A stretch of 64,000 nt of DNA from an uncultured Lachnospiraceae bacterium (GTDB lineage Bacteria > Bacillota > Clostridia > Lachnospirales > Lachnospiraceae). A program made the position numbers and the translations under genes. A model generated the notes under the pieces. It was not told the origin of the DNA and searched no databases. It saw only the letters and a list, made by a program, of their open reading frames with translations. Of the stretch, positions 23,733-49,438 are shown piece by piece; positions within the stretch are counted from its first letter, which is position 1; the number at the start of each line of letters is the position of its first letter. Where the stretch lies: assembly GCA_947167445.1 (NCBI GenBank), contig CAMVID010000008.1, forward strand, positions 206 to 64,205. The letters are read 5' to 3'.

Positions 23733-23915
23733 TTATTCTTCGGCTACGTTCATGGTAGAACGTATCAACCGCAGCATCTCAATTACGCTTCGGAAGTGTT
23801 CCTTCTTGTTCCCTTCAACCCAGGTTAATGTTCCTTGCCAGGTGCTGTTCTCACAGCTCTTGACCTCAAGAACAAAACTGCTTCCTCCGCTGGTTACCGT
23901 CATCTTTCTTTTCAA
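23733..23915 (-). CDS. Small conserved protein, paralogue B (60 aa), family not recognised
   Basis: It lies 21 nt downstream of the 3717-aa gene. The track start is TTG with GGGGGTGA upstream; an alternative ATG is at 23903. The core is SFVLEVKSCENSTWQGTLTWVEGNKKEHFRSVIEMLRLIRST. Confidence 0.65.
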   Translation of the reverse strand: MKRKMTVTSGGSSFVLEVKSCENSTWQGTLTWVEGNKKEHFRSVIEMLRLIRSTMNVAEE

Positions 23916-23936
23916 TTATTTCACCCCCATGATTAA

Positions 23937-26900
23937 TTAGATTTTGACCTTATGCTTCTTTCGATAGTAGATTGCACCACCTATACCCGCAAGGAGCGCT
24001 AAGGATGCCAATACATAAAGTGCCATTCCCTTCTTGTTTTCTTCATCCGTCGGCTTGCTGTCAGTTATATAGCCTCCGTAAACACTGAAGTCCTTAATGG
24101 AGAGTCTTGCATTCTCCGACTCATAACCTGAATCCGTCATGAACTTATCCATGTCAATGATTTCGTAGGTTCCGGTTGACTGATTATAAACAGTCATAAG
24201 CTTCTTCTCAGTGGTGACACTGTCAGTGGGAGCTTCACTTTCTGTCTCCTCATCTTCCGCTACTTCCATCAAGTCCTTCACGCTTGATGAATGTTTACCT
24301 ACGTTGACTCCATCGGTTTCAAGGCTTTCCGTGGCTGCAGTTTCATTACTTGAAGCCTTTCCTTCCACGGCGGGTGCCCTTCCTGTTCCGCCGCCTGTGG
24401 CTTCTCCTGAAGTTTCATTGGTACCGTCAACAGTTTCCTGGCTTCCATCAAGATCAGGTTCGTCAAGTTCATTAACTTCACCTGTTCCAACGCCTCCGCC
24501 TTCGCCATTTGTATGGGCCTTCTTAGAGTTTTCTTCTCCTCCTAAGCCTGCTGCCTTCGAACCTCCCACAAGGGATTCCTCTCCGGTTTCTGATGCAGTG
24601 CCGCCCATGGCCAAAGCTTCGCCTCCGTTTCTTTCGCCTTCCGTGGATGCGCCGCCTTCAATTCCGTTTCCTGCCGCTTCTCCTTCATCCATGTTGCCCG
24701 CAATGAGCATTCCGTCAGCGACATTACTCTTCTTGTTTTCGGAATCGCTTCCCTTTACCTCATCGGTGTCGATTCCGATATCGAAGCCGCTGTCCTCTTC
24801 AAGGTTCCTTAAGGTCTTGTTATCTCCTGTCTTCTCGGTATTGTCTTCATCAAACAAAACCTTCTCCGTAGACTTATCAAAGGCTGTCACACCGCCTTCG
24901 TTATTGCCCTCAAGCAGTTCACCATTATTATTTCCTACAACCATGGTTGCAAGTCTTTCAGGTGTTCCCGCAAGTTCTGCGACACGGCCTGTTGCGCCGT
25001 ATAAGGAAGCCGCAGGCTTTAACAAGGATTTATCTCCGCTAAAGTAAACCTTGATGTAGTCGATAAGGGACATCTCATTCTTGATGGAATTATCGAAGAG
25101 ATATTCTCCTGTCATGTAGTTGTAACCGACTATACCTCCGTTGGCATACTCTACGAGGATAAAGGGTGCAGATGTGTTAAAGTTATTTGACATGTATAGG
25201 ATTCCGCTTCGTTTAAAGTCCTCGGGAGCATTTATGTTTTCACCCATATAAAGGTCAAACATAATTCCGTCGTTTCCAAGAACAGTCAGATACTCGTCTC
25301 CATCCTTCGTATACATGACTGCGGAATCCTTGATATTTTCAATGGAGGAATGAATGATATTCACATTTCCGTTTCGGCTCTTTAGTATCTGAGCTTCACG
25401 GGTAATGAAATCATCTGCACCACCTATCATCGCGTACTTCCAGTATGTTGATACGGGCATTCCGTTAAGGTTGAATTCTTCAAGGGCTTTAGGACTCCTG
25501 GTAAGTTCGATTCCCTTAACCGTATCTCCTATCACACTGCCGTCAGAAAGATTAATAACCCTTCCTGATGAAGTAAGTCCGAATCCTTCATAGATATTTA
25601 CAAACTTACCGGAAATCAAAGTTGCAGTGGGATCCTTGCCGTCCTCACCTCTCTCTTCAGCACTGCTGCCGTAGCCTTTGACTACGCCGCCATCTGTCAC
25701 ATAGTAATATGCTGTATCGTAAGTCATTACACGTCTCGCAAGAGATCTGGGCTTATAGATATATGGATTGCCGCCCTCAAGTGACTCGCCCCCGTCGCCT
25801 TCTTCCTCTTCGAGGGAGTCTTCATCCTTATAGGCCATGGTGTAGTCATCAAGGAAACTATAATCCTCTAAAATGTCTTCTATCTCATAGTCAACTCCGA
25901 GAGTCTTTCCGTCTTCACTCATGGAGGCAATGTATCCGCCTACATCAGCATATCCATATTCAATTCTTATCTTTTTTGCAAAATCATAATTTAGCGTCAG
26001 AACCCTTGAATTACTCTCACCGTAATTTAAAAGGGTCTGAACTGCAGGTTCGGATTGGTTTCCGTAGTAAACCTTTACATATGTAGATTCTGCCTGCAAA
26101 GCATTCTCCGCAAACTCAATATTTATTGTCGATGCTGAGCTTGCATATACCACAGGGTCAGATATTACGGGGCGCATTATCCTCATGGCCGCCCTGAGTC
26201 TAATCTTCCCGAGTGAACTTGTGGGTGCGGGAAGATTTATATTCTTCCTTACCTGATACTGTGTAAGAGAATCATTCGCAGTTGTGTTGTTATTCACTCT
26301 TATATGAGGAAGATAACTCTTGCCTGAAACTGCACCATAATTTCCGTTGGCGTAAACGCCGGAGTAGGTCTTTGTATCAGCTGTGAGAATTACATAGTAG
26401 TATCGTCCTGCCCAACCGGGATTTGTATTTCCTGTGCTGGAGGATACATGGTACATAGTATAGTAAGGTCCGTGGGTCGCCAGGTCGGTTCCTGTAATAA
26501 GTCGAACGTTTAAGGTATTGGTTGTATCCTTCTCCTTGGTGTCATACACACCCGTTCTGTCGTTACTGTAAACCACATATCTTGCCACATCCGTGGTGCC
26601 TTCTATTACGTTATACTGAACGAACTTGGCACTTCCGTTTCTTGCCCATTCAGGGGCCTCGGAGTTCTTAAGGAATGCCAGTTTCACAGAACCTGCTGTG
26701 GTTTCAAGTTCAGTGCTGTCCCAGAAGAAGGTTATATCGGCTTTATCAACGGTCGATCTGTCCTTGGCATCGCCGTAACTTCCGCTGGTCTGATTGCTTC
26801 TGTTAGCCCTTCCTTCAAAGCCATCCACATTTCCTGCAAAAGCATGGGCATGGGTTCCGCCTGTGGCTGTAATCTTCGAAGCAAGACCAAGGTTTCTGTA

Positions 26901-29900
26901 TGTATAAGTAATTTCGTTTGCCGAACCGGTCTTGGGAAGAGAATCTGTAGCATTGACTCGTCTTCCGCCATTGGCTGCCGCACCGCTTCCGCCGTGAGAG
27001 CTTACAGCTTCGCTTGAAGCCATGGTAATGTCTCCCACCAAACCTCCGGCATAATCCTTTGCACTGACGGTTCCTGCAAAATAGTTTCCAAAGAGCGATG
27101 CTGTTGAATAACCGTAGTTGTCTTTACCGCTTACCTTGGTTACCGTGTAACCGTTTCTGTATGCTCCGTCTACACCGCCTGCGTAGAAATTAGCGGCTTT
27201 TACATTTGCATTGGAGTAGCTGTACTGGACACTTCCCGTAAAGTGATATCCTGCTACACCTCCTACGTAGTTGTTACCTGAAACGAAGTATTTATCATTT
27301 GCCTTTGGCGATGCAGCGCTTTCAGGCTCCGCGTAGTAGAAGCATCGGGATAAGGAGTTGTTAAGGTATCCTGCCACGCCTCCTACATTATTGTGTTTAG
27401 GCGCATCTATGGTTGTATTTACCGCACTCGAATAGTAGACAGGATAATATGCATATCCGATAACACCGCCGACGTTCTTAAGCTCCGTTGTTATGCTTCC
27501 GGTCTGATTCAGTTCAATCGTCGAATCCTCAACCTTACAATAGTAGATTGAACCGTCTGAGGACTTGTAGCCGTATCCCAGTCCTACGAAACCATGGTTG
27601 TTAATCTTGATCTTCGTTCCCTTAACCATGTCATAGTAGCTGATATAGGAAATCTGTCCGGCGATACCGCCTACGTAGTTATAAACTGCGGTGGTATCCT
27701 TAACAGCGGTTACCAGAGTGTGGTAGCAATGACTGTCATAGTCATCTGTACAGTAGCCATACATTCCGCCAATGTTATTGACATATCCCTTGACCACTAT
27801 GCCGTCTACCATGTTGCTGACATTGGTTTCTGCGGTGTCATAGGGTGAGGTTTGCACTACTCTTGTGTTGTAAGCCCCGGCAGAGTTGATTTTGCCAAGG
27901 AAATAAACATTCGTGTAGCCTATGAGTCCGCCAATGTGAGTACTGCTTGTGGTCGGATTCTTGAAGCTTATGGTTGTGGTTGATGTATCTGTATATCCGT
28001 CAGCATCTTTGCTGACTGTTCCCGTAAGGGTTACGTCTGCGAAGAAGGATCCGGTTTTGCCTGACATTCTTCCTGGCTCATAACCTCCCACAATGCCGCC
28101 TACTCTCGCATTGGCATTTGAAGTAACAGTGAAGTCTGTACCCCTGATCTTATAGAAGCTTGCCTTGCCTGCTCCTCCGGAGATTCCTCCAACATTTCCG
28201 TTTCCGAATACATTTACATTGGTGGCATCTATATTTGTGAAAATCGTATTACTCTTCGCATATCCCGTAATGCCACCTGCATAAGGACTTGCAGTTGTAG
28301 CGTTTGTTCCTATGGTTACATTGTTTAATACAATCTTTCCGGAATCGGGATCTGCCTCATCATACTTACCGATGCAGCCACCGTTCTGATATCCGATAAG
28401 GCCGATGAAGTTGTTGGCGGAGATGCTGTTGATGGTGATATTGTTAAACTCCATATCATAAACCGCACCTGATGAAGTTCCGATAAGACCGATACAGTCA
28501 CGGCTCTTTGTGTTGACTGAGCAGTTACTGAATCTAAGGTTTGATATCTCGGAATTCAGTCTGAAGATAAGGTTCTCGTTTGCATTGGTGAGTCTGATGT
28601 TACTTAAGGTAAGCATTGAATCACCGGTTCCCACGGTTCGGAAGCCTCTCAGACGTCCTATCTTTGCGTTCTTTGTATAAGCTGCTCCCGATGAGAAATC
28701 GATATCATTTACGATTCTGAAGTTCTCATAGTTGCCGTAATTGGTCTCCTCTTTAATGTACTTATTCCAGGTAGTAATATCCGCAATATCCGCGAAGAGC
28801 ATAAGGGGAATTCGTACAGGGTTATTCTCGAAATTTGAATGACCCGTTATTTTTCCGTCAGCGCTCTTATAGCTTATGGACATAAGCATGTAACTGTCTA
28901 AGAAATGCTCCTGCTTGATGTCATACTCAATAGGCTGTCTTGCGGTACCGCTTGCATTAAAGGTTGCTTTATAGTTGTTATAGAATTTGCAATTAAGATC
29001 CTCTATTTTATAGCCGGTAATGACATAGCCTTCAGGGCCTTCAAGGTCAAGAGCAATACGTCTTTCTGTTTCATTGACGAATACGCTTGTAACCTTTATA
29101 AGGTTGTTTTCAACCTTGGTAAGGCTCAAAGGTATATCCTTCTCCTGGAAAGGCATGGGCACACTTGTGCCGTAGTAATATAGCGTAGGCAGGTGTTCTG
29201 CTGCTGCCTTGCTGTAATCGTAAGCACCGGCATCCATATCAAGTAGTGATGAATCCGTATAGGTGGCAGGATTCGTGGCCTGATCATATGTGATAAGTCC
29301 AAATGTGTTCTTGTCACAATCCTTTACGGTACCCTGATATGATTCATCTGAAATAAGTATTCCGTCCTCATCGAATTTGGCTCCGGTAATACCGTTATAA
29401 AGCTGAACCTCACAGCCGTAGAAGGTGCTTCTTGTTCCTGCCATGGAACCTGTTGTATATGAAACGTCATCTGAATCCGTGTTGACGCACATTACATTTC
29501 CAAGAGCAACACCGGACATATTGTTTCTCTCGGCGATGGTTCCCTCGGTGATGTTGATTTCACCTGCTATACCACCCACGTTATCCTGGTAACTCTTTAC
29601 GTCTACTCTTGAAATTATATTGGTCATCATGTTGGTGACGCAGCCTGCGGTATGGTAACCCACAATTCCGCCTACGTTGTTGCCACGCACACTGATATCA
29701 CCTGTAGCATACAGATTTTCAAGGGCTGAAGTTCCGCTGTAGCCTACTATTGCTCCTGCACCCAGACAGGTTCTTAAATCGTTTGCTTCTATTTGAACGT
29801 TTCTTGCAAAACAGTTGGTGACTCTGCAGCCGTCAGCTCTAGCTGCGATGGCTCCGATTTTGCCTTCCGTATTGGAGTTGGCAGGTTCGGCATATGTAAT

Positions 29901-32900
29901 CTCTGCGTCGGTTGAACTGCAGTTTTCAATCAGAGTTCCACCGTATGCATAACAAACAAGGGTTGTCAGATATGTTCTTCCCGTAATATGAGATCTTACT
30001 GTGTGAACGTTGCTGACCTCTCCATATAATGCTGTGATAAAACCGTTGTAATCTCTGTTTGGAACATTGGCGGTGAAATCCTCTATGCAAAGGTTCTTTA
30101 CAGAGCCGTCAACTCTTGTAAACACAACGGGGTTATATCCGCTTCCCGTAAATGTAATATTCTTAAGGCAGAAACCTTTTCTTGTGGCATTGTTGTCCTT
30201 TTCGACGCCACCCTTTCCCATTCCGCCGTCAAGCTTTCCGGTATATGTGTTAGTTACGCAAATTCTGTCTCTTGGGACACCGGAGAAATCAATGTCGCAT
30301 GCCAGTCTTGCGTTTTCATCAGGTTTCTTAACCACATAGTTGTACCAGTCATCCGCAGTCTCAATCAATCTGTAGAAATCGACTGCAAGAAGTGCGTCGC
30401 TTTGTACAACCGATGTGGAGTTTCCAACGGACACGGTAAGGTTCTCTATCGCATACATGGACACAAACTTGGCAGGATTTGAAACCTTAAGATACATAGT
30501 TGTGTATCCGTCAAGCATGGTTGTTTTGAAGGTGTCATCTTCGTAGAGGTCGGTGTCAAGGTTCTCGATTGATACTGCTTTGATAACGGCGTTCCGGGGG
30601 TTATTAAGTCTAAGTTTGATGAGGGCTGAATCGCCGTTTTCACCGTATGAGACCACCTCCGTGGAAATTACTTCCACCAACCTTGTGATGTTGCGATTAG
30701 GCAGAGGTATAAGCTCCTGATCCGGGAGCTCGTTACTTAGGGATACATGAGGGTAGAATCCAACCTCAACGGGCTGCGCATCAAAGCCCGCGCCCAGAAC
30801 CTCACCTTGCCAGTTGTAATCATATAGTGATTCCAAACCAATCATATGTTGCTTGGTAGATTTGGCATAAACATTATTACCTTCATTCCAGTAGTAAATT
30901 CCGGAATGGGTTGCACTGTTGACACCGAGGGCAGGTCCAACAATTTCTGTGTCGTACATTTTGCCGTTATATGGCATATTGTAGAAGGACTGTCCGACGC
31001 TGTACATGCTTTCGCAGTTTCCGATTGCATAGCCGATTATTGCGCCATACTGCGTGTCACGTGCCTTTGAAGCATTCATGTCGGGGTTTGATACCACCAC
31101 GTTTACAAGGGAGAAGACATGATCGGTCTTACCTCTTGAATTCTGGTAGCCTATGATACCGCCCACATTGATTCCCGAACCTGCCGAGGTGGTCTGGGTC
31201 ACGGAATTAATGTCTGATCCATAAACGTAACCGTTTCTTACAACACCATCGTTAAGGTATACAAGAAGACCTGCGTTGCTTCTTGCAGAAAAAACACAGC
31301 TATCTCCCTGAGGATCATTCTTTATAACGAAGCGCTCAATAACACCGCTGGCTGCGTTTCGTCCTGCAACAAGTCCGTAGTAGATGTTGTTGGTTCCGGA
31401 ACCGCCAAGGTAATGAACGAAAATATCGTGAATATGTCCGTAGTTATGTCTGCAGAAAATACCATGGTCATACTCTCTTGTTGTGGTATGATCCGAAAAC
31501 TCAAATACGGCGTTTTTAATCTCAGCCTTGGGACCGATATTTGAGAATATAGCTCCTTCATTCTTATAGTTATTCTTCTGAAGCTTATATCCCTGGAAAT
31601 CAATTTCTCCCCTGAAGGTTCCTGTTACACCCGCACTGGGAAGCGTTGCCTTTAAAGCACCGTTACTGTCATAGTCAACTTCATCCATGATGATGTCACC
31701 GGTAACAACAAATCTTGCGTTGGGATTCTTGCTGATCTTTTCTACAAATTCTTTAGCATTTGCAATCTCAAAAATGCAGTCTCTTGCATTGAATTCCAAT
31801 GTGTCAAGAATCAGCTTGTTTTTGTTTATAATTACGTACAGAGTCATTTTGTACGTATCATCCGCCTTGTTAACCTTCCACTCAGAGTTGGTTCTTATGG
31901 TATTAGTACCGTCATCATAAGCGTAATTTTCTACCTTTGTAAGGCTTGTATCGAAAGTGGAAGTAATATCAACCCCATTCTTCTCCACTGTGATGAAATA
32001 AGGCATCTGGCCGTTCATAATGCGGTCATCATCGTAGATAAGAACTCTGGTCTTGGCGGTAAGTCTTGTAGCCGAGAAGTTATCAAGGCTTATTAATTTG
32101 ATATTTCCCGAAAGGTTAATGGGATTATCAATAAAGTGCTGGTAAATAAGCTTGTTGGACTCAAAAGTCTCGTTGGTGTATCCTTCGTTGTACTCAACGG
32201 CAACGAAATTCATAAAGAAGGTTTCCGAAGGATCAAGTCCCGTAAACTCATAGGGAACAGGTGCGTCTGTATTCTTCGGTACACGTACGGCCCTTACCAG
32301 GTTCCTGTGGCTGTCATACAAATTAAGTACCACAACATGACCCGAGTTACCTGTGATGGCTCCGTCGGGATCTTCTATTTTTACGTTAAATCTCAAAGTG
32401 CCGGCCGCCAAAAGATCATCGGTAACCGTTACCTTTGCAGGCTCACGCATGGTCTTGAAGGCAGACCTTGTAAGAGATACGTTCATCTCATATCTCTTGC
32501 CGTTATAAAGGGCATAAACCACGGGAGTGATTGAATACTCCGTCATGCTTGTAAGGTAATAGGGAACCTCATCACCCACAACAGGATTATTCTTAATATC
32601 CCTGAAGTTCTTAAGAGCTTCCTTTTGTGCGTCTGAAAGGCCTTCGCCCTTCTCGAAATAATTGGCGTCCATCAATACACTTCCGGGAGTCAGATCCTTG
32701 TTTCCGGTGTCAGGATTGTAACCCGTGAAGTTATGCATTGCCTCATTATCAAAAACCATACCCGAATGAACTCCGGGGTTGGCTCCCTCGGTAGTATTAA
32801 TAAGAAATACCACGTCAGAAAGAAGGCCCTGAAGAGTTTCATTGGTCTTGGCATCGTTTATTGTGTAAGTTATATTTGCACTGTGCGCTGTTACATGGGC

Positions 32901-36360: not shown

Positions 36361-36364
<4 letters not shown>
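35819..36364 (-). CDS. Polytopic membrane protein (181 aa, about 5 TM helices), unknown family
   Basis: Hydrophobic throughout. Charged residues lie in a hydrophobic stretch (GFFYGARMMDSVLLAM). It has 4-nt overlaps with both neighbours. Confidence 0.6.
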
Positions 36365-38205
<1,841 letters not shown>

Positions 38206-38222
38206 TAAAGACCCTCCCGTTT

Positions 38223-39020
38223 TTAATACGCCCTCGTCTTCGTATAGTTATCCAAAACCTTGGCAAACTGCTTGTCTTTGTTCCGACGTCTCTCTTCCAT
38301 AAGCCTTATTTCATCCCTCTCATCAAGCTTATTTAAGGACTCGGTTGTTACATTCTGTCTTGATATATTCTCCGATGCATAGCTTGCCGCTGCTGCAATT
38401 TCCATGGAGTATTTCACGTACAGGACAACCATGTTCACAAGAAGATCATCCACATTCCCCTCGAACGAGAAGTCTTCTTTATAGTCATCCTCTTCATTGG
38501 CTTCACCCTTCGGAACCGGGTAAATCTGCTTGTCAACAAGCGCCACCTGTGAGGAATTGTAGTAATGGTTATAGACTATTGAAATCTTTGAATATCGGCG
38601 TTCCCTTATGGCTTCCTCGAGAAGCCCCATTACCTTGCCGTTATCCTCGTCGTACTCTTCCCTTGTTTGAAAAAGCAGAAGCTTCTCCTTATCGGAAGGT
38701 TTGATTTTTCTTCCGATTACTATCTGCTTCACATCCCTCTCTGCATCTCCTGCCTGATCTCCCAATGTCTTTTTGACCAGAGCATTCAAGTTGCTGCAAA
38801 AGCCCATATCGGAACCTATATAGATGTTCAGTTCCGGCTTTGTGGGGTCAACCTTGTGCATCTTATAATCCAGGGAAATGTTTCTGTTGTTGACTATGTT
38901 GTCAATCATCCTAGTAAGAATCTGCTCCATGGCTGTGTACTTCTTGGACTTGTTTCTTGACTTGTCCACCCTTAAAAGGGAGTGGAAGTTCATAACCTTA
39001 ACGACGCTTCTTATACTCAT
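38223..39020 (-). CDS. F1 ATPase gamma-like subunit (divergent)
   Basis: 265-aa ORF with three eye-aligned blocks to canonical gamma. YIGSDMGFCSNLNALV matches ITSDRGLAGAYNSNV. ISIVYNHYYNSSQ matches LYMYYNHYVSAIQ. YASENISRQNVTTESLNKLDE matches [20 protein letters not shown]. It has an ATGA overlap with alpha. Confidence 0.7.
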   Translation of the reverse strand: MSIRSVVKVMNFHSLLRVDKSRNKSKKYTAMEQILTRMIDNIVNNRNISLDYKMHKVDPTKPELNIYIGSDMGFCSNLNALVKKTLGDQAGDAERDVKQIVIGRKIKPSDKEKLLLFQTREEYDEDNGKVMGLLEEAIRERRYSKISIVYNHYYNSSQVALVDKQIYPVPKGEANEEDDYKEDFSFEGNVDDLLVNMVVLYVKYSMEIAAAASYASENISRQNVTTESLNKLDERDEIRLMEERRRNKDKQFAKVLDNYTKTRAY

Positions 39021-40342: not shown

Positions 40343-41141
40343 TCTTCTTCCTCGATTTGTAGATGCTGTAGTCATACAGTCTGCCCTGGTATACTATTCG
40401 AATACCCTCGCAGACATTCTTATCGAACATACAAACCACGTTGTCGGCAACGTTGTCGTAATTCTCGTCTTCTTCTCCAAGGTAAGCTTTCAGCTCAGGG
40501 GTCTGAATACTTACCGTCTGCTTAAGCCATGAAATAAAATCAAGGATGTCAAACTCTTCGATTTCATCCATGGGCTCAATGAACTCACCAAGAAGTGCCT
40601 TTTCCTTTTTCTTCAGCGAATCATATAAAACCTTTAACTGCTCGGTTTTCTCCAAAGTACAAAGGTCGTAGATTGCGTTGAAATTTAGAAGCTCCAGTAT
40701 GGATTTGGCTGCGTTGTAGCGCTCCAAATTGCCGTGGTAAGGAAACTTTTCAAGCACAGTCTTTATAATGGAGCTCTTATCCATAACAAGCAGGTTTTTG
40801 GCCGTTTTGTAATCGGCAAAGAACCCGTTGTCGATGTAATGAGATACAGGAATGTAAGCATCTCTTATTACGGGACGAGGCTTGTAGAATCTTGATACCT
40901 GCATGGCATTGTAGTCCTGCTTTAAAATCTTGATTCTTTGTTCCACCTCTTCCTTGGACTCTTTCAGTTCTTCCAGCTCATTCATTTTCTTTTTGAAGTC
41001 ACTGTCAAACTCCTTCAGTTTTGAAAGGAAGTAGACATTGACCTTCTTACTGGCATTCTCCGTGACAATCCTTAAGGAGGCCGTGACAAAGTAAATCATG
41101 ACCGCCATAATCACGAAAATCGCTATAAATACAGCTATCAT
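40326..41141 (-). CDS. b-like stator subunit with a possible delta/OSCP-like C-terminal domain
   Basis: 271-aa ORF with one N-terminal TM (IAVFIAIFVIMAVMIYFV), then a charged coiled coil. The globular C-terminus ends in DKNVCEGIRIVYQGRLYDYSI, reminiscent of the delta C-terminus (D.sliGG..v.vgd.viD.Sv). Confidence 0.55.
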   Translation of the reverse strand: MIAVFIAIFVIMAVMIYFVTASLRIVTENASKKVNVYFLSKLKEFDSDFKKKMNELEELKESKEEVEQRIKILKQDYNAMQVSRFYKPRPVIRDAYIPVSHYIDNGFFADYKTAKNLLVMDKSSIIKTVLEKFPYHGNLERYNAAKSILELLNFNAIYDLCTLEKTEQLKVLYDSLKKKEKALLGEFIEPMDEIEEFDILDFISWLKQTVSIQTPELKAYLGEEDENYDNVADNVVCMFDKNVCEGIRIVYQGRLYDYSIYKSRKKNEHIY

Positions 41142-41154: not shown

Positions 41155-41412
<258 letters not shown>

Positions 41413-41428: not shown

Positions 41429-43057
41429 TTAGTGTAATACTCCCGTAACTTCGGGAAGACTGCTCACAACATTCACGTTCTGATACGTTGCAGACTCAAA
41501 CTTCATTGTTAAAGGTTTATTCTCTGTTGTCTCAGAAATAGGTAATGTAAAACTCATGCTCTTGCTGTCTCCTCCGGCAGCGGCTGCTGCTCCGTCAACC
41601 TGCAAGGATGATCCCATTTTGTTTCCGTTAAAGTAAACGCCAACTGTCGCCCCCGACAGCTCATATCCGTTGTAAGACTTTACGGTATAGTTGACGGTTA
41701 CAAGAGTCTTTCCGTCTGTATCTTTGCTTGTTGAAATCTTATTAATCTCAATATATGCGATATCTGCTTTAGTGGTTACCTTGGCCACATCCTGATTAAC
41801 CGTGACAAGTTCTGTACTTCCGGTTGAATCCTTCTTATAAGCCTGATAGCCCATCTCCAGCTTGTAATTCTTGCCGGGTTCAAGGCCTGTTACCGTATAC
41901 CTGGTATCGGTCTTACTAAGATGTACGGTTTCCTTCAAAGGATTGCTGGCCGCAAGGTCATAGACATTCAAAAATACATCCACGTAATCGTTTGTAAGGT
42001 CGTTTACGAAGTATTCAACGTCAATGCTTGATACGGAAGCCGTTGCTTTCTTTAAGCTGATCCACTTGGTTGCAGAAATGGAAGCATCGCTTCCTTCGCC
42101 ACCTTGTCCGCCGTCTCCGCCATCGCCGCCGAGACCGCCGTTTCCGCCCTGGCCTCCGACACCGCCGGTACCGCCTGAACCTCCGGCGCCACCGTTTCCG
42201 CCAAGACCACCGTCACCGCCGAATCCGCCTGAACCTCCGGTGCCGCCTGCTCCGCCCGAGCCACCGGTACCGCCTTGTCCGCCGGTACCGCCGGCTCCTC
42301 CGTTACCACCCATGATGGTGATAACTTCGGGATTTTTGGCCATCAGCTGTGCATCAGGTTCTTCCACAATTCCCTCTGTGTACAAAAGAGGCCGTTTGGA
42401 ATAGAGATTGGTGCTTCCGATAATGTTCTTTAAGCTGACTACGTTTCCGTCTTTGGCCATAAGCTCACTGCTAACGTCAAAATAAAGTCCGTCGCTTTCA
42501 AGAACAATAGGTTCAATAACATTGACGTAGTAATCATCATTCATAATCATTGCTGAGCCGCTCTTATGAATGTTGATGGTTACATACCCGTCGGATGAAA
42601 GAGAACTGTCAGTGGAGTTAATGTCTCGCCCCGTCATTACATAAAGCCTGTCTCGAAGCTTATAAAGTGACGGTGTGTTCATGTCCTCCACAACGTTCAC
42701 ATCTTTTAGTTTGTCCACGGTACCATCCCCGTTGATTTTGTACGAATCCCCGTATATGGTCATGCTTGATGCTGTGGGATCGTAGATTACTGTGTTTTTA
42801 CCAAGGCAATACACATCATCGTCTGCGGTTTTCAGGTAATATTTGTTGTCCCATTTCTTCCTGACCGAGCCTTCATCTGTCATGTCCACATATTCGTTAT
42901 CCTCGGTATATACCGTGGAGCCGGGCGCCACGGGGTATGCTTCGTTTCGGTTTTTGACCACGAAGACAACCGCCGAAGAAAAAACCACCAGACCGGCCAC
43001 AAGCATAATACCCAGCGCATTAAAAGACATGGTGTTTTGCTTACTTAACTTTCTCAC
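41429..43057 (-). CDS. N-anchored envelope protein (542 aa): TM, juxtamembrane module, (GGX)24 repeat, FN3/Ig-like domains
   Basis: GTG start with GAGG upstream. TM segment FNALGIMLVAGLVVFSSAVVFVV. The repeat GGNGGAGGTGGQGG...GGQGGEG covers aa 250-322 (42092-42310). An FN3-like signature YTVTGLEPGKNYKLEM is present. Confidence 0.8.
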   Translation of the reverse strand: MRKLSKQNTMSFNALGIMLVAGLVVFSSAVVFVVKNRNEAYPVAPGSTVYTEDNEYVDMTDEGSVRKKWDNKYYLKTADDDVYCLGKNTVIYDPTASSMTIYGDSYKINGDGTVDKLKDVNVVEDMNTPSLYKLRDRLYVMTGRDINSTDSSLSSDGYVTINIHKSGSAMIMNDDYYVNVIEPIVLESDGLYFDVSSELMAKDGNVVSLKNIIGSTNLYSKRPLLYTEGIVEEPDAQLMAKNPEVITIMGGNGGAGGTGGQGGTGGSGGAGGTGGSGGFGGDGGLGGNGGAGGSGGTGGVGGQGGNGGLGGDGGDGGQGGEGSDASISATKWISLKKATASVSSIDVEYFVNDLTNDYVDVFLNVYDLAASNPLKETVHLSKTDTRYTVTGLEPGKNYKLEMGYQAYKKDSTGSTELVTVNQDVAKVTTKADIAYIEINKISTSKDTDGKTLVTVNYTVKSYNGYELSGATVGVYFNGNKMGSSLQVDGAAAAAGGDSKSMSFTLPISETTENKPLTMKFESATYQNVNVVSSLPEVTGVLH

Positions 43058-43075: not shown

Positions 43076-46000
43076 TTATTCACCTGTGGTCTGAACTGTT
43101 TCAGTCTTTACCCTGGTATCAAGGTCTCCCAAAAGTCCGCCTGTGCCGCTTCTATACTGAATCTTTACGTCATACCACTGATCCGAATCGATGGATGAGG
43201 AAGACCAGTCAAATGTCTTGGTAAATGATGAACTCTTCGCCTCATCCTCAGATACTTCAATTCCGCTCTCGGTTGTGGTGTAAACCATGGTTCCATTTGA
43301 GTTATATGCCGTAAGGACAATCTTTCTGACGTTAGCGAAGTTACTGAGGTTGTAGAATTCAATCTCCAATCTGTCCACCGTAGCGTCGGAACCAATCGAT
43401 GCCGTGGCTGCCGATCCTGTGCTTACGGTAGCTTCGCTGAATACCAGTACATCTCCTTCAGTCTCATCAAATCGTCCGTTGTTGTTAAGGTCTGCCTGAC
43501 CCTCCACTCTTACGATGTAATCACCGGGATCCACATCGTTAAAGGTAACGGTTTCGTACTCTGCTCCACCGGAGTTTGTAAGAACTACATTTTGTGAGCC
43601 CACAGCATTATCTGTATCTGTTCTCTTGTAGAGACTTACTGTGTACGTTCCGTCAAGGATTGCCTTTTGTGAATCCGTGCAAGTAACCGAAGCATTGATA
43701 TTATTCTCCGAAGGAGTAGCTGTCAGCCTGAAGTCAGGAAGTGTAAGACTTGTGGGTGTCTGCACAGGAAGGATGGTGAAGCCCAATTCTTCGTCGGGAT
43801 CACTGTCATCCACTGCCCAAACTCGAACGGTATATGTGCTCCCCAGATAGAATCTTCCTGTTCCGGGGTTCATTGTTGTGCTGAAGGGATTATTCTGATC
43901 CGCTCTCTGGCTGTAGTACTGATATCCGGGATCACCAAGTTTATCTATGGTTCCTTCTGCCACAACACTGCCGTTATCAATATCTGTTCCGCTTACAATC
44001 TTGTACTTGACCGTCATGCCGGTACCCTCATCACCGGGGATGCCAAATCCGAAGGATACTGTCTTATCATCGTAGGCATTGTATGAATAGCTGGGTCCGG
44101 TTACTCCGATATTTATGTATTTAAGTGTTTTAAATGTGTACTGAACATTAACTCTTTCTTTGTCAGGATCAATACTGTACAAAGGACGCTCATTTCCGGC
44201 GTTGTCGTATGTAAAGAACAAAACGCCGTAGTTGGTCTCGGTGGACAGCTTTCTGAGCCTCAAAGTAAAGTTATTGTTCGTAACCGTAATATAAGTCTGA
44301 TTCTTAAACTCTGTTGTGTCATAGTCAGGAGTTGAAGCATCTGTGCTTACCTCGAAGAATTCTCCTCTGTCGTCGGAATTCTTTTTAAGTTTTACGACTG
44401 TGTCAGCGCCGCTCTTCTGAATCAGCTTCGCATAGATTCTGTCGGTACTTACTCCGTGAAGAGACATCTCAAGGGTTGCGGACTTGGCACCTGCGGTAAT
44501 TCTTTCCTGTCTGATTGCTGCAACTACAGTACCCATGGTAATGTTAAGGGTCTTGTTGCTTGTGTCGGTTCCGTCATATATACCAAAGTCAAATGCGCTC
44601 TTTGCCAATTTCTCTGCAACGTAGTAGTTCTCTCCTATGTGAATACCGTTCTCATCGAAGGTAAATCCGCTTAAAGGTGCGGTTTCAAACTGGGAGTTTG
44701 AAACAAGAGCGTTGTAGTAATACCTCTGGTCCATGATGGCACTTGATCTGTTGCCGGGGTTGGATGTTACATTAAGTCCGCCGCCTGCAACATTTCCGGG
44801 AATTACCATGGAGCCCAATGTGGTAGCTCCAAGGCCATAGGTTGTCGTCCAGTTACTATCCTCTCTCTGTATATATTTTGTTGTTCCGTCACTGACGTTC
44901 ACTCTTCTTAAAGCAAACAGGTTCTCACGCTCGGTACTTGACTCGTAGAAGGTTCCCTTGTCGTAGTCATCCATAAGACCTTCGTAATCATCGAATCCCG
45001 AAGATTTTGTGGAATAATAGCCGTTTACGCTGACGCTTAAGTTTGTTCCAGGACTGAACTTGGCAGCAAGAGGTCCCTGATCAACATATGCGTATCCATA
45101 AGGAGTTGCACTTCCTGACAGTTCTCCTCTGTCAACCACGTATACAGGATCGTAAATAACACTGTCATTACCATCACTGAATACAACTCTAAATGCAGAG
45201 AACTTATCCAAATCCGTTCCCATGAACGTCAGTCTGTATCTGTAGTTACCTTCGTTTACAAGAGGTGCCACAGTTCCGTCAGAAAGTTTATCCGCTGCGT
45301 TATCATTTGTGGTCCATGTGAGACCCTTAAGATAAATATTGTTTGCGGATATGGTCTGAGTCTGGAAATGCTGAACCGGCTTGGATGTAATATATTTTGT
45401 TGCTTCCGAAGCGGCTGACAAGGTCTTGTAGGGAATTCCAACACTATAGTAAATTCCGTCTGTACCAAGTCCGTCAATTGTCAGTGCCTTAAAGTCGTTA
45501 TTGTTTCTGTATCCGTCGGTATCATCCATTCCCGGTACATTTACAGTTGATTTGGTTGTTGATGTAGCTACCCCGGCATATGTATTGGCCTTTGTAATTT
45601 CAAACGCCGCTTTGCCCGCATTGTCTGTAATGATTGCTTTATCCGGGTCAATAATTCTGTAATTCCAAATGTCTTTTCCGTTCTCTGAGGAGAGAGGATA
45701 TCTCTCAGCTACGGGTGTCTGCATGTCAAGGGATATTACAGCGGATCTGTACAAAGGAACAGGTGTACTTCCGTATGCGCAATCAGGGTAGAAATGATCG
45801 TTATCGGGATCGATACAAGGGGTGATTGTATGATCAGCCAATACCCTGTATGCGATGATATATCTCTTACCTCTGGTCAAAATATCTTGATCTTCTGCAC
45901 TGCTTCCGTCAGGCTTCTTCCAGGTCATTACATATGAGCCAACACTCTTTGTACCCTTGAAGTAAAGCTCTGTGTCACGAACGCCGTACTCCATACCATC

Positions 46001-49000
46001 TCTTGTATGTTCACCAACAAGAACCAGATTACACTTCACATCTGTTCCGTATGTGTAGGTTCCGTCAGGGTTTGCCGTAACAGTAGCTATACCTTCTGAA
46101 AAATCATCGGGTGCCTTAGGATAAATAAGCTGGTTGGATGCAATGTCATAATTATCATCAAGTTCATAGATGTAGTAATAAATCTTGTTTACATCCGCGT
46201 ATCCGTAATCTGCTCTGAATCGGAGTCCAACCACTGTGCTGCCGTCAATTCCGTCTTCCGAATAGCCTATAGCCGCTGCGGAATTGGGAAGAGCATCTAC
46301 AACAACCTGTCTGTTGGGATTGTTGGCCTGTACGTGTTTCTTTGAGATTCCGAATCTGATAACGTTCTCGCCTTCCTTGAAGGGAATTGTGTTACCACTT
46401 CCGCCGGTTCCGTCTGCAAGATTAAGGGTGTAGTCGTATGCTCCGATGACCTTAATCTTGAACTCTCCGCCTGAGAAAAGGGCGTTATCGTTGTTATCAA
46501 TACCAAAGTCTGAAGGAGTGATTTCAAATACCGATGTGTCACTTGCAGCTTCCGAATCTTTAATTGTAAGGCCCTTACTTTCTTCAGGCCCCGTAAGCTC
46601 TGCGTCAGGGTTGTATTCTGTCTTATCACGTCCAATGAATGCAGTGTCCTTGAAATAAGAGTCATGGGATCTTGTATCTCCGTCCGCAAGAACCGTTGCA
46701 TTACCAACGATTCTCTCAAGCCCCGAATCCTCCACATGAATAAGCTGTAGTTCCAGCCTTTCAAGTACGGATGCAGAATATTGAGCCTGTCCGATTTCAT
46801 CCGCGTCTTCCGAAAGAGATGTGACGTTAATGCTGTATCTGAAAGCAGATTGGGGATTGGCAAGTCTTCTTGCAGCCAAAGCTAAGGGCTTATGAGTCTT
46901 GGTATTAACTCTGGTGCCCGTAAAGTATGTGCTTGCTTCGGCACCAGTAATGTTTCCGTCCCCGTTTGTATCCTGGGGACCGCTTAATATCAATGTGTAA
47001 ACGGAATCCTGATGAAGCCCCTCTTTCTTGAAGGGAATGAGCCAGTAGTTTCCGTTAGACTTGATGATATCTCCCCATTCAGTTGTATAGTTCGTTTCGT
47101 AATTATCCTTGTACTTAAGTGTGTATGTATCCGCATACTCACCGGAAATGGCAAGTACAAGGGGATTGGTGCCTCCTATATGCTGAAGGACCGATGTGTT
47201 GTTCCAGTTACTTGATATATCTCCTGTACCATCTGTGATTTTGATGAATCCGGAAATTGTATCCGCACTCTGCTGATTCTCATCAATCAGAAGTTCAACC
47301 ATAAGATCCGTGTTAACCGCGCTTAAGTCAGATACGTTGGAGAACAGTGTTGATATCTCCATATCTTTCTCGTTATCGTTGAACATTACGGTTACGCGTG
47401 CTCTGTAGACATCCAAATCTCCCGAAGGAATGGAGAATGTATGCCCTGAAAGCTGAGTCAAATCCTTAGAGTATGTGGCAACAAGTTCATCCATTGACCC
47501 GGTCTGAAGAGCACTGGATATATCTGAATCCTTAAATAAATCGATTCGATAACTTGATATTCCGCAATCAGGATCCGCAATGGGATTAAGGTTTACCGTA
47601 ATGGTATGGTTCTTGTCATTGGAGGTGATGGTAGGTGTCATAAGTGCTACCGATCTCCTCTCTCCAAAAGTGGCGGTTGCGGTATAAATCTCGTAATCGT
47701 AAGGTGTTTCCTTAAGAGTCTTTAGCTCTACTTCGCTTCCGTCTGTGGGAATGAGTTCATTATTCACAACTACATTTCCAAGTTCCGCATAATAAGTTGT
47801 ATTGCTTTTTACATCAGTAAACGAGTTAGTTCTGCCTGAGGTACCGGGGGCAGGGTTTGTATCATTTACTACAAATGTTGCTCCTGTGCTGGTGCAATTA
47901 AACAAAGCGATAGTCTGCTTTTGGCCGTTGTCATCGTAGTAGAAGAATCTTACGTTATAACTGTCTACCTGACCGGTTACTTTGGTTACGGCCGATATCT
48001 CAGTGTCCGTAACATAATCCTTTGTGATTCCTATTCCCAAAGGTTCCGTTCTGAAAATCTTCTGGAAAAGGATTCCGGTTTGAGGGCTTTCTCCCTTGCC
48101 CGGTAAGTATTCGCCTTCAACAACAAGAACGTACTCTCTGTCTGCATTTAATCCACTGAAGGTCAATGCTCCACTGCCACTTTCTATCTTGGCACCAAGT
48201 TCCAGCTGCTTGTTTTCCTTGTCTGTGCCTGCTACCAGTTGCATGGTTTCTCTGTCATAAACCTTTACCTTGGCACTTCCGGCTGTAAGGGTATTGTCCG
48301 GATCTTCCATGTTGAAATTCATGGTGGCACTTCCGGGAGTTACCGAATAGCTTCTGTTATTATCGCCTGAATTCACCCTGATCTCAGGTCTTGAATAAAG
48401 GTCAACAGATTGAAGCTGGCTTGCACTTGCTGCAGTATCTGCATCTTTGCCGGCTATACCTTCGGCACCGTCATAGCCCATGATTCCGGTGTCACCTTCA
48501 ACACCGTCTTTGCCGAGTCCGCCGGTGGAACCCATGGCGCCTTCAGAGCCCGCTTCTCCTTCTCCGCCTTCTTCGCCTTCCTTTCCTTCCTCTCCGGCTT
48601 CACCCTGCTCGCCGTCGGTTCCGTCGGTACCGTTTACACCGTCCTTACCGTTTATGACGTTGAATGTAGGAATAGTAGGGCCGTCTTCTATGTTTTCATC
48701 TATGTCGATGTAGCTGTCATCATCAATTGTCATGTCGTCAAGAGAAAGAACCGCTTCTCCGTCTACCATGAAATTCTTGCCAACAAGGTTAAGCTCTGCA
48801 CCGCCCCTTGTGACAAGTGTGCTATCTGCGGCAACTGTCTGATATGTTCCTGACTGATGGGAAATTCGAACGATACCGTTGTCAACGTAAGTAAGCTGAA
48901 CATAATCAGAGAACTGAACATCATCGCCGGAAGTTTTAAGCGTTACATCAGGGGATAAAAGCATGTAGTCCCGGTCTGAAATCTTCCAGATGAATTCTGT

Positions 49001-49438
49001 TATGTTCATGGCTTCGCCGCGGCTGCTCATTTCGTAGGCGCCGCCGTTTTTTACAAGAACGGTGTTCTTTGAAAGGCTGTAATAGCCATAATTAGATTCC
49101 GTTATTTCGGAAACGTCCATAATAACGCCCTTTTTGAAGGATCCAAGGGAGCCGTCATTATAGTGAATAAAATGGTCCGAATCAATTAATTCATTCGTTC
49201 CTGTTGCGTCTTTAAAGGAAATCTGAGTACCATACTTCTCTTTATACTTGGTGCCCTGAGTGAAGTAATACTCCATATTAACGTTGTCGGTAACAAACTC
49301 TTCATCCGATGGATCGAGAATAAAACCGTCAGCGACAAAAGTTCTGGTGTTTCTGGCATTATTGACCGCAGATAGCACAGCAAGCCCCGCACCCAAAGCC
49401 AATACTGCAGCCAAAATAAACATAATACCCTTCTTCAT
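43076..49438 (-). CDS. Large (2120 aa) N-anchored fibre-like protein: TM/signal, juxtamembrane module, collagen-like (G-X-Y)23, long array of Ig/FN3-like domains
   Basis: SD GGAG 7 nt before the ATG. The N-terminus is MKKGIMFILAAVLALGAGLAVLSAV. An uninterrupted G-X-Y run, GKDGVNGTDGTDGEQGEAG...GAEGIAGKD, covers aa 264-332 (48443-48649). There is no C-terminal anchor. Confidence 0.85.
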   Translation of the reverse strand: MKKGIMFILAAVLALGAGLAVLSAVNNARNTRTFVADGFILDPSDEEFVTDNVNMEYYFTQGTKYKEKYGTQISFKDATGTNELIDSDHFIHYNDGSLGSFKKGVIMDVSEITESNYGYYSLSKNTVLVKNGGAYEMSSRGEAMNITEFIWKISDRDYMLLSPDVTLKTSGDDVQFSDYVQLTYVDNGIVRISHQSGTYQTVAADSTLVTRGGAELNLVGKNFMVDGEAVLSLDDMTIDDDSYIDIDENIEDGPTIPTFNVINGKDGVNGTDGTDGEQGEAGEEGKEGEEGGEGEAGSEGAMGSTGGLGKDGVEGDTGIMGYDGAEGIAGKDADTAASASQLQSVDLYSRPEIRVNSGDNNRSYSVTPGSATMNFNMEDPDNTLTAGSAKVKVYDRETMQLVAGTDKENKQLELGAKIESGSGALTFSGLNADREYVLVVEGEYLPGKGESPQTGILFQKIFRTEPLGIGITKDYVTDTEISAVTKVTGQVDSYNVRFFYYDDNGQKQTIALFNCTSTGATFVVNDTNPAPGTSGRTNSFTDVKSNTTYYAELGNVVVNNELIPTDGSEVELKTLKETPYDYEIYTATATFGERRSVALMTPTITSNDKNHTITVNLNPIADPDCGISSYRIDLFKDSDISSALQTGSMDELVATYSKDLTQLSGHTFSIPSGDLDVYRARVTVMFNDNEKDMEISTLFSNVSDLSAVNTDLMVELLIDENQQSADTISGFIKITDGTGDISSNWNNTSVLQHIGGTNPLVLAISGEYADTYTLKYKDNYETNYTTEWGDIIKSNGNYWLIPFKKEGLHQDSVYTLILSGPQDTNGDGNITGAEASTYFTGTRVNTKTHKPLALAARRLANPQSAFRYSINVTSLSEDADEIGQAQYSASVLERLELQLIHVEDSGLERIVGNATVLADGDTRSHDSYFKDTAFIGRDKTEYNPDAELTGPEESKGLTIKDSEAASDTSVFEITPSDFGIDNNDNALFSGGEFKIKVIGAYDYTLNLADGTGGSGNTIPFKEGENVIRFGISKKHVQANNPNRQVVVDALPNSAAAIGYSEDGIDGSTVVGLRFRADYGYADVNKIYYYIYELDDNYDIASNQLIYPKAPDDFSEGIATVTANPDGTYTYGTDVKCNLVLVGEHTRDGMEYGVRDTELYFKGTKSVGSYVMTWKKPDGSSAEDQDILTRGKRYIIAYRVLADHTITPCIDPDNDHFYPDCAYGSTPVPLYRSAVISLDMQTPVAERYPLSSENGKDIWNYRIIDPDKAIITDNAGKAAFEITKANTYAGVATSTTKSTVNVPGMDDTDGYRNNNDFKALTIDGLGTDGIYYSVGIPYKTLSAASEATKYITSKPVQHFQTQTISANNIYLKGLTWTTNDNAADKLSDGTVAPLVNEGNYRYRLTFMGTDLDKFSAFRVVFSDGNDSVIYDPVYVVDRGELSGSATPYGYAYVDQGPLAAKFSPGTNLSVSVNGYYSTKSSGFDDYEGLMDDYDKGTFYESSTERENLFALRRVNVSDGTTKYIQREDSNWTTTYGLGATTLGSMVIPGNVAGGGLNVTSNPGNRSSAIMDQRYYYNALVSNSQFETAPLSGFTFDENGIHIGENYYVAEKLAKSAFDFGIYDGTDTSNKTLNITMGTVVAAIRQERITAGAKSATLEMSLHGVSTDRIYAKLIQKSGADTVVKLKKNSDDRGEFFEVSTDASTPDYDTTEFKNQTYITVTNNNFTLRLRKLSTETNYGVLFFTYDNAGNERPLYSIDPDKERVNVQYTFKTLKYINIGVTGPSYSYNAYDDKTVSFGFGIPGDEGTGMTVKYKIVSGTDIDNGSVVAEGTIDKLGDPGYQYYSQRADQNNPFSTTMNPGTGRFYLGSTYTVRVWAVDDSDPDEELGFTILPVQTPTSLTLPDFRLTATPSENNINASVTCTDSQKAILDGTYTVSLYKRTDTDNAVGSQNVVLTNSGGAEYETVTFNDVDPGDYIVRVEGQADLNNNGRFDETEGDVLVFSEATVSTGSAATASIGSDATVDRLEIEFYNLSNFANVRKIVLTAYNSNGTMVYTTTESGIEVSEDEAKSSSFTKTFDWSSSSIDSDQWYDVKIQYRSGTGGLLGDLDTRVKTETVQTTGE

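Follow-up and report, generated by a model that had tools for sequence, protein, structure and literature searches.

Results

A conserved operon of ATPase and surface-protein genes

The window, as we call the whole 64,000-nucleotide (nt) stretch of contig CAMVID010000008.1 (assembly GCA_947167445.1) analysed here, comes from a Lachnospiraceae metagenome-assembled genome (MAG) of the buffalo rumen. Its minus strand carries an operon of 13 open reading frames (ORFs), running from position 49438 to 23733, in which a set of F-type ATPase genes is enclosed by genes for very large, membrane-anchored surface proteins. Eleven of the 13 recur elsewhere in one order: giant-1, a protein of ~540 amino acids (aa), c, b-delta, alpha, gamma, beta, an epsilon-like protein, a protein with 4-5 transmembrane (TM) helices, a protein of ~240 aa and giant-2. 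All coordinates refer to the window, and features lie on the minus strand unless noted otherwise. ORF calls confirmed an earlier sequence-only reading of this DNA, both in the positions of the 13 ORFs and in their ATGA/GTGA overlaps. Computed from the ORF coordinates, the gaps between genes are +18, +16, +13, +17, +21 and +21 nt; four overlaps (ATGA/GTGA) measure 4 nt and one, between beta and the epsilon-like gene, 26 nt. The b-delta and alpha genes overlap by 50 nt if alpha begins at its first ATG, and by 17 nt with the Met12 start (441 aa), which is the choice of independent gene callers in relatives.

A search of the protein database found 964 relatives of the gamma-like protein, and a scan of one genome per species placed it in at least 273 genomes, 80 of which were inspected. 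Nearly all of these 80 are Clostridia, from the Lachnospiraceae, Oscillospiraceae, Peptococcia and Family XIII; among them are the source of the window (100% identical), the cultured Lachnospiraceae bacterium G11 (98%) and Kineothrix alysoides KNHs209, along with several isolates from the human gut, and the Oscillospiraceae, Peptococcia and Family XIII are represented by MAGs. When the window proteins were compared by BLAST with all ORFs of 83 loci, a single gene order ran through them all, in isolates and in MAGs from many studies. Alpha, gamma and beta were matched at all 83 loci, the epsilon-like protein at 77, c and the 236-aa protein at 76 each, b-delta at 74, giant-2 at 71 and the 542-aa protein at 61, the missing matches being mostly cut-offs at contig ends. 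A 4-5-TM protein occupies the matching slot in the ORF maps of distant members even where BLAST fails. The sequence-only reading had asked whether the ATPase genes are constantly accompanied by those of the giants; in the sampled Clostridial lineages, whose loci range from 26 to 61% in G+C content, they are.

That two or three unrelated operons stand together here by chance, or were joined by an assembly artefact, has practically no probability, being refuted by the identical order in 83 independent loci, by the 4-nt gene overlaps and by the variable outer flanks. The genes upstream of giant-1 differ among genomes, and the unit therefore starts at giant-1. Since base composition is even across the 64-kilobase window, the block is not marked as a recent island. 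The alpha and beta subunits evolve slowest, at 57-92% identity to the window proteins, and the accessory and fibre proteins share 22-60% (fibres 22-58%), a pattern of a conserved engine with diversifying surface parts.

A few records of the cluster stand apart. Two to three diverged copies of the whole system occur per MAG in one Hungatella-labelled MAG (L016, L024 and L033) and in MAG Tb.RUG.141 (L046 and L061); their gamma proteins are 80-93% identical, and the copies are either true paralogous systems or the product of mixed bins. The complete cluster also appears in records labelled Thermoguttaceae (Planctomycetota; L025) and Coriobacteriales (Actinomycetota; L065 and L080), of which the L025 locus is nearly the same as a locus from a Roseburia MAG (L030). 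These three records are probably mislabelled or mis-binned; otherwise they would represent cross-phylum transfer.

An F1 head with its catalytic residues kept

The alpha-like protein (39017-40342; 441 aa from Met12, in an ORF of 452 aa that reaches 40375) and the beta-like catalytic protein (36626-38005; 459 aa) match Pfam ATP-synt_ab (241 and 215 bits). Their best matches in the PDB are bacterial F1 subunits, at ~325-360 bits and ~40% identity, with the chains of the Mycoplasma mobile G1-ATPase scoring lower (266 and 314 bits). Alpha has the P-loop GDKKTGKT and the arginine finger SVSRLGG. The catalytic motifs quoted for alpha and beta in the sequence-only reading are indeed present, and they are near-invariant across 73 distinct family sequences: the exact beta P-loop (GGAGVGKT, with Lys156 as the Walker A lysine) is found in 71, the motif GERSREG in all 73 and the alpha arginine finger in 70, and Walker B varies only conservatively. 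Alpha also keeps its N-terminal delta-binding helix, which is consistent with a delta-like partner, and has a C-terminal domain ~50 aa shorter than that of canonical alpha.

The gamma-like protein (38223-39020; 265 aa) matches Pfam ATP-synt with 84 bits. The epsilon-like protein (36361-36651; 96 aa) was tentatively assigned from its position after beta and from sub-threshold profile matches in the PDB: the five best matches of its family profile are all epsilon N-domains, aligned end to end, at E-values of 0.6-1.5, and HHalign comparison with the E. coli and PS3 epsilon subunits gave the same register with no significant score. It is probably the N-terminal beta-sandwich of epsilon alone; 96 aa are too few to hold the C-terminal inhibitory helical hairpin. 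An epsilon-like subunit that has no room for the inhibitory helices would fit an enzyme meant for ATP hydrolysis.

The conservation of the catalytic residues bears on the idea that the complex is a static anchor or scaffold holding the bases of the fibres, or a nucleotide-dependent switch, rather than a force generator. Retention of the P-loop, the catalytic Glu and Arg, Walker B and the alpha arginine finger in 70-73 of 73 distinct sequences, together with the slow evolution of alpha and beta, suggests that the targets of selection are catalysis and the geometry of rotor and stator rather than bulk. In favour of a scaffold it may be said that the ATPase activity of the complex is predicted from sequence alone, that the c-ring has lost its normal function, and that the Type 3 complex of mycoplasmas, whose mechanism is unsolved, is labile. 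We regard this explanation as quite improbable.

Two family representatives of beta have unusual lengths. One (P0202, 702 aa) ends in a ~250-aa poly-acidic tail of Glu, Asp and Lys, and another (P0203) begins with an 84-aa disordered extension. These were considered as informative gene fusions and rejected, the additions being low-complexity tails only.

A c subunit with no ion-binding carboxylate

The c-like protein (41155-41400; 81 aa from the ATG at 41400, within an 85-aa ORF reaching a TTG at 41412) matches Pfam ATP-synt_C with 36 bits against a cutoff of 24, and the c subunits of relatives were also called at 81 aa. It forms a hairpin of two TM helices, whose cytoplasmic loop, GRNPET, is invariant in ~60 distinct family sequences. 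In these same sequences the position of E. coli c Asp61 is taken by Thr, Met, Ala, Val or Leu, both TM helices being free of acidic residues throughout. Searches of all operon ORFs with Pfam and NCBIfam gave no ATP-synt_A match. The earlier observations that the operon encodes no subunit a and that its c subunit has no membrane carboxylate are therefore borne out. A Phe-Asn-Pro (FNP) motif at the extracellular C-terminus of c is likewise invariant and is a candidate contact site for a partner.

The only other polytopic product of the operon is a protein of 181 aa (35819-36364), predicted to span the membrane 4-5 times and found in a constant slot of the cluster. It has no match in Pfam or NCBIfam. 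As a cryptic subunit a it was rejected, with an HHalign probability of 0.5% against E. coli subunit a, and since it holds no invariant residue it has no conserved Arg equivalent to the essential arginine of that subunit.

An unconventional ion-translocating ATPase or synthase would have the 181-aa protein in place of subunit a, an ion site different from the usual carboxylate of the c-ring, and the giants as mere co-regulated neighbours. Such an enzyme would explain the canonical atp order, the complete F1 and stator and the conserved c loop, as well as the position of the family betas astride the NCBIfam atpD cutoff and their designation as F0F1 ATP synthase by the Prokaryotic Genome Annotation Pipeline (PGAP). 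However, the absence of acidic residues from the c helices of every member and of subunit a features from the 181-aa protein both speak against it, and a linkage to giants that survives across the sampled Clostridial lineages and a 35-point range of G+C content is unexpected for co-regulated neighbours, so that we hold this explanation to be very improbable. With no subunit a in the operon and no c carboxylate in any member, the cluster, judged by its predicted products, cannot be a housekeeping synthase.

A stalk protein recognised by its predicted fold

The gene between c and alpha (40326-41141) encodes a protein of 271 aa. Its sequence gave nothing significant in Pfam, NCBIfam or PDB searches or in tests of b and delta homology. 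An AlphaFold2 model built from 38 homologs (mean predicted local distance difference test score, pLDDT, 77) shows a combined TM and stalk helix at residues 2-79 (78 residues), a linker at 80-104 (YKPRP..P..YID), a helical bundle at 105-213 and a small beta domain at 217-257. When this model was compared with the PDB by Foldseek, delta/OSCP chains made up nearly all of the top ~33 matches (E-values 0.007-1), with the mycobacterial b-delta fusion (7njs_d, 7nkq_d and others) among them. A motif at its C-terminus aligns with the corresponding end of E. coli delta. We accept the 271-aa protein as a b-delta fusion stalk because of this predicted fold, not because of sequence homology. The subunit assignments of the sequence-only reading thus stand for c, alpha, gamma and beta by Pfam and for b-delta by fold; that of epsilon is suggestive only. 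Residues 83-111 of the b-delta protein, within the low-confidence linker, hold the invariant motif SRFYKPRP...P...YID..FF..Y, a candidate contact site for a partner.

Giant and stalked surface proteins

Four proteins of the operon begin with a hydrophobic helix of ~20-25 residues: giant-1 (43076-49438; 2120 aa), the 542-aa protein (41429-43057), the 236-aa protein (35112-35822) and giant-2 (23937-35090; 3717 aa). They show no obvious signal-peptidase site and are predicted to be membrane-anchored. This agrees with the N-terminal anchoring that had been proposed for the giants, with the addition that giant-2 carries a C-terminal TM anchor as well. The 236-aa protein was modelled with high confidence by AlphaFold2 (pLDDT 90.6) as a TM helix (10-37) followed by an all-beta ectodomain, and this ectodomain found no real match by Foldseek in the PDB or in the viral BFVD (best TM-score <=0.19). 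In HHalign comparisons the N-terminal 230 residues of giant-1, those of the 542-aa protein and the 236-aa protein were linked to one another at 81-85% probability, the N-terminal module of the 542-aa protein matching the 236-aa family at 84%. These three proteins appear to have a common membrane-proximal beta-module.

In two of the four, a run of Gly-X-Y triplets directly follows the module. In giant-1 it spans residues 264-332 (23 uninterrupted triplets) and scores 28.4 on Pfam Collagen, above the cutoff of 27.2; in the 542-aa protein, where it is of the GGX type, it spans 250-324 (25 uninterrupted triplets). Of 62 homologs of the 542-aa protein, 59 have the run in the equivalent place, and six of eight complete giant-1 homologs have it at ~275-335; Pfam Collagen also matches homologs of giant-1. 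The PDB matches of giant-1 are collagens with E-values down to 5e-20, BclA being among them. We infer that these runs form a trimeric, collagen-like triple helix. Collagen rises 0.286 nm per residue, and at this geometry the stalks would be ~20-21 nm long, about the thickness of one Gram-positive wall.

Beyond their stalks the proteins differ. The 542-aa protein ends in a beta-rich distal part, and giant-1 continues for ~1800 aa rich in Thr, Gly, Asp and Ser. Giant-2 follows its N-terminal TM anchor and ~230-aa module with a Glu/Lys/Pro-rich linker (~231-280) where the others have the Gly-X-Y stalk, and then with ~3400 aa that hold no known domains, before a C-terminal TM helix (3688-3709) and a basic tail; its homologs in the Lachnospiraceae measure 3480-3717 aa. 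Apart from the collagen run, searches of the giants against Pfam (E-values up to 5) and PDB sequences gave nothing but weak matches to fn3 and to a GLUG motif, and BLAST found no internal repeats in them. The label of fibre given to these proteins in the sequence-only reading is thus supported by the Gly-X-Y stalks for giant-1 and the 542-aa protein and is only assumed for giant-2. Special conservation of the fibre TM anchors, as if they were packed in or on the c-ring, was considered and found no support in a comparison of conservation. The ectodomain modules of the fibre proteins do hold conserved motifs.

The nature of these proteins raises the question of an assembly or export device, in which the F1-like ATPase would power the insertion, translocation, folding or polymerisation of the giants in the manner of FliI, FliJ and FliH, with no movement afterwards. 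Its substrates would be encoded beside the machine, and the giants are very large and have no classic cleavable signal peptides. A b-delta protein is not exclusive to rotary stators either, FliH itself being b/delta-like. Moreover, translocation has been discussed by Beven et al. as a possible ancestral role of such ATPases. We nevertheless find this explanation unlikely, as an alpha/beta heterohexamer with a pore-filling gamma, an epsilon-like subunit and a c subunit with an F1-docking loop describes a rotor, not a pore. The two distinct subunits do not suggest a homohexamer, and scores on FliI/SctN models, at 130-210 bits against cutoffs of 380-715, fall far below those on F1 models. No export gate or channel is encoded, the sole polytopic protein having 4-5 TM helices and poor conservation, and proteins with an N-terminal signal anchor can use Sec/YidC.

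Transcription signals, passenger ORFs and neighbouring genes

A leader and promoter region of ~370 nt (49439-49811) precedes giant-1 and was delimited by consensus scans only. It includes a sigma-70-like site (49767-49739; likewise from a consensus scan only) and, ~60 nt 5' of the giant-1 start codon, a hairpin that with its T-run resembles a terminator (49520-49499) and is a possible attenuator; Rfam matched no known RNA family or riboswitch in the leader. A terminator scan placed the terminator of the preceding gene at 49834-49812 and a downstream terminator at 23424-23408. A further hairpin at ~23712-23676, missed by that scan, has an 18-bp stem followed by a T-run (ViennaRNA folding energy -31.8 kcal/mol). 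Because this hairpin is stronger and lies directly 3' of the last, 60-aa ORF, it is the likelier end of the operon, with 23424-23408 as a second terminator. The flanking terminators reported in the sequence-only reading, and the absence of a strong internal one, were confirmed, and the end of the operon was moved to ~23712-23676. Between the two downstream terminators a 12-nt unit, AAAAAGCCCTGC on the plus strand, is repeated in tandem, with 6.8 copies at 72% matches (23586-23667).

Two short ORFs, counted earlier among the genes of the system, turned out to be lineage-specific passengers. The first, of 67 aa (38002-38205), sits in a 217-nt spacer between gamma and beta (38006-38222). It is absent from 81 of the 83 loci and confined to the species group of the window, relatives having a spacer of ~10-30 nt; as a subunit it was rejected on the ground of this lineage specificity. 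The first half of the spacer is nearly invariant between the window and isolate G11, and its 3' half diverges faster than the flanking genes. A structured RNA in the spacer was unsupported (no Rfam match; RNA fold z-score -1.6).

The second is a TWQG-motif protein of 56-60 aa, preceded by a ribosome-binding site (23733-23915). A paralog on the plus strand (18251-18436) is 63% identical, the two having the motif NxTWQGTxTWVEG...FRS in common, and relatives lie in unrelated contexts on 40 metagenome contigs, where some of them form the C-terminal domain of a larger protein. On account of these contexts the 60-aa ORF was rejected as a component of the system; it is probably co-transcribed with the operon as a passenger.

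Two genes lie directly upstream of the operon (49848-52576, minus strand), one for a membrane diguanylate cyclase of the GGDEF type (688 aa) and the other for a protein of 219 aa that belongs to no recognised family. The pair is present in same-species contigs (L128 and L129), not in other genomes. A separate surface protein of 1360 aa (18511-22593, minus strand) combines a signal peptide with a long coiled-coil-like region rich in Ala, Glu and Lys, a central part rich in Tyr and Trp, and a C-terminal TM anchor with a basic tail that resembles that of giant-2; Pfam gave no match for it.

Discussion

A possible mechanical motor

Our results point to a vertically old, self-contained Clostridial operon that probably encodes an F-type rotary ATPase turned into a mechanical motor that consumes ATP, along with the surface proteins on which this motor acts. 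The motor would have been kept for ATP hydrolysis and for the hold between rotor and stator, with no known ion coupling, because its catalytic residues and delta-binding helix are retained while the c carboxylate and subunit a are lost. Hydrolysis of ATP would turn, or at least twist, gamma, the epsilon-like subunit and the c-ring against the b-delta stator. Given that there is no ion path, the work would be delivered mechanically to an extracellular complex of the 236-aa protein and the beta-modules at the bases of the fibres, and outward through the stalks, with the 181-aa protein as a possible membrane coupler. The fibres could thereby be moved, cranked or tensioned outside the wall. Coupling seems more likely on the outer face, since the fibre TM anchors are not specially conserved and since the invariant FNP of c and the conserved motifs of the modules are found there. 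Its possible outputs include movement akin to gliding or twitching, a controlled attachment and detachment, and remodelling of the surface.

Several observations weigh against a mechanical motor. The epsilon assignment of the 96-aa protein is not statistically significant by sequence, and the 181-aa protein, proposed as coupler, is poorly conserved and has no invariant residue. The stalk helix of b-delta is short, extending ~50 residues past the membrane, and its reach to the top of F1 hangs on the low-confidence linker. In the fibre proteins, conservation of the TM anchors does not exceed that of the ectodomains, and the anchor sequences give no sign of specific packing against the c-ring. 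Lastly, we know of no characterised precedent for carboxylate-free c-rings, and assembly of a ring is assumed.

A bolder version of the mechanical motor would make the system a prokaryotic rotary surface organelle of a new kind, in which the carboxylate-free c-ring is a purely mechanical rotor, rotation passes through the wall by stiff, trimeric, collagen-like shafts, and the giant fibres spin, crank or walk. We consider this version doubtful, although possible. If true, it would place a rotary organelle beside the ion-driven flagellum and the ATP-driven archaellum, and this organelle might be a walled-cell ancestor or cousin of the F1-like motors of mollicutes.

F1-derived mechanical motors that act on surface proteins have so far been regarded as peculiar to wall-less mycoplasmas, and their mechanism is unsolved after two decades. 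The cluster described here would represent a second origin of such motors, in walled Clostridia of the gut, the rumen and the environment, including cultured isolates. With the c-ring and stator kept and the ion site and subunit a lost, it would be an unusually clean case of a purely mechanical F-type output. The system may therefore give a tractable route to the study of F-type force transmission across a membrane, and its cultured hosts would make testing direct. It may also correspond to an unknown surface structure on abundant commensals, among them Lachnospiraceae, Roseburia- and Butyrivibrio-like bacteria and Oscillospiraceae, where giant, fast-evolving, collagen-stalked proteins are likely to be relevant to adhesion to mucus, plant fibre or other cells. 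Current annotation pipelines call the genes 'F0F1 ATP synthase subunit' or 'hypothetical protein', and an extra ATP synthase may therefore be wrongly credited to their hosts in metabolic reconstructions.

Relation to described F-type and F1-like systems

The cluster shares with canonical F1Fo (atpIBEFHAGDC) the internal order c, b(delta), alpha, gamma, beta, epsilon, the Pfam families of gamma and c, the delta/OSCP fold of the stalk, and alpha and beta subunits that score best against F1 in the PDB and NCBIfam. It differs in having no subunit a, no atpI, no Asp or Glu in c and no epsilon C-terminal domain, and in the fusion of b with delta. On NCBIfam housekeeping models, alpha remained below the cutoffs of PRK13343 (426 against 554 bits) and atpA (382 against 484), and beta below that of atpD (443.7 against 462.85). 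Other betas of the family score 464-489 bits on atpD, so that the family as a whole, at 444-489, is borderline; PGAP annotates the family betas as F0F1 ATP synthase. The mycobacterial b-delta fusion likewise joins an N-terminal membrane and stalk helix to a delta domain in one polypeptide, but it is larger (~445 aa), belongs to a proton-coupled synthase in which it is joined by subunit a and a second b, and has no detectable sequence similarity to the 271-aa protein.

The Na+-translocating N-ATPase (atpDCQRBEFAG) offers a parallel as a second, divergent type of F-type operon, the N-ATPase coexisting with the housekeeping enzyme. It has subunit a, a Na+-binding c, AtpQ and AtpR, and no delta, whereas the window cluster has neither subunit a nor further small membrane ORFs. 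The alt_F1F0 models for this enzyme were far from reached: alpha scored 355 bits against a cutoff of 750.5, beta 397 against 752, c 20.7 against 130.85 and gamma 20.3 against 282. Among bacterial proteins with collagen-like stalks, BclA of the Bacillus exosporium and Scl1 and Scl2 of Streptococcus also have an uninterrupted Gly-X-Y stalk; theirs is trimeric and projects a distal domain. Unlike the proteins of the cluster, they have no N-terminal TM anchor beside a rotary ATPase, are far smaller, and have unrelated distal regions.

In an exhaustive search of 1.84 billion representatives, full-length betas of the family scored 588-811 bits and the next full-length protein 356 bits. The family beta shares ~40% identity with the betas of canonical enzymes, of the N-ATPase type and of mollicute Types 2 and 3 (38-39% with Type 2). 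Placed against housekeeping F1, N-ATPase and mollicute clades, as the sequence-only reading had advised, the Clostridial betas proved to be a discrete clade, monophyletic in 100 of 100 bootstraps of a neighbour-joining tree. In 50 of 100 bootstraps their sister was a small clade holding a true Type 3 beta (P0246) and unclassified betas from contigs of 22% G+C content. This signal may reflect a wider radiation of F1-like motors, or long-branch attraction.

The 22%-G+C contigs carry a separate, uncharacterised F1-like cluster (L130, 2855-9534; L133, 1219-8997; also L131 and L132). It consists of two small ORFs, an alpha-like gene, a ~220-aa ORF, a beta-like gene, a ~87-aa ORF and a gene for a ~690-aa ClpB-like AAA+ protein, and it includes no TM proteins and no giants. 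Its betas fall below all NCBIfam cutoffs.

In mollicutes, motors derived from F1 act on surface proteins (PMC12994834, PMC11864180, PMC3369863). The Type 2 G1-ATPase of M. mobile (MMOB1610-1670; Gli349/Gli521) resembles the present cluster in its F1 alpha, beta, gamma and epsilon paralogs with intact catalytic motifs; by the current view its ATP hydrolysis produces a force that reaches very large surface proteins through the membrane, and its cluster contains novel membrane proteins (PMC11864180, PMC12994834). However, the Type 2 cluster has no c-like or b/delta-like gene, its additional products being one protein with 12 TM helices, a small cytoplasmic one and a large one that has two TM helices at its C-terminus (PMC12994834), and its order, 12TM-small-gamma-epsilon-large-alpha-beta, is not that of the window. 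The Type 2 beta also has an N-terminal dimerisation domain of ~300 aa, an extension that the window beta (459 aa) does not have. The Clostridial hosts, unlike M. mobile, are walled, and their giant genes lie inside the ATPase operon. On the Type 2 models (MMOB1660/MMOB1670) alpha scored 379 bits against a cutoff of 600 and beta 369 against 850, and true Type 2 betas (P0243 and P0238) reach 1210 and 1095 bits.

The Type 3 F1-like X0 of mycoplasmas is an F1-derived ATPase tied to the surface proteins of MIB-MIP antibody cleavage and needed for their action, by a mechanism proposed to involve an ATP-driven conformational change transmitted across the membrane (PMC12994834). It has no c, no b/delta and no N-terminal delta-binding helix on alpha, whereas the window has all three, and its partner proteins and gene order are different. 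On the Type 3 models (MSC_0618/MSC_0619) beta scored 380 bits against a cutoff of 570 and alpha 297 against 520, and no protease or immunoglobulin-binding family that would be a sign of MIB-MIP was matched by the operon ORFs. The statement in the sequence-only reading that the mollicute F1-like clusters are devoid of c genes is correct, and it extends to b/delta (PMC12994834).

Full-text searching of the literature found no description of the 11-gene cluster, and the cluster is likewise missing from a survey of F0F1 operon variants. Together with the failure of the curated N-ATPase, Type 2 and Type 3 models, this agrees with the initial impression that the system is not a described one. By the comparisons made here, which are of sequences and predicted folds, the 11-gene cluster is outside every described family and conceptually resembles the F1-like motors of mollicutes. 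It is most likely a mechanical motor that is driven by ATP hydrolysis and coupled to surface fibres, analogous to the mollicute systems and standing outside them.

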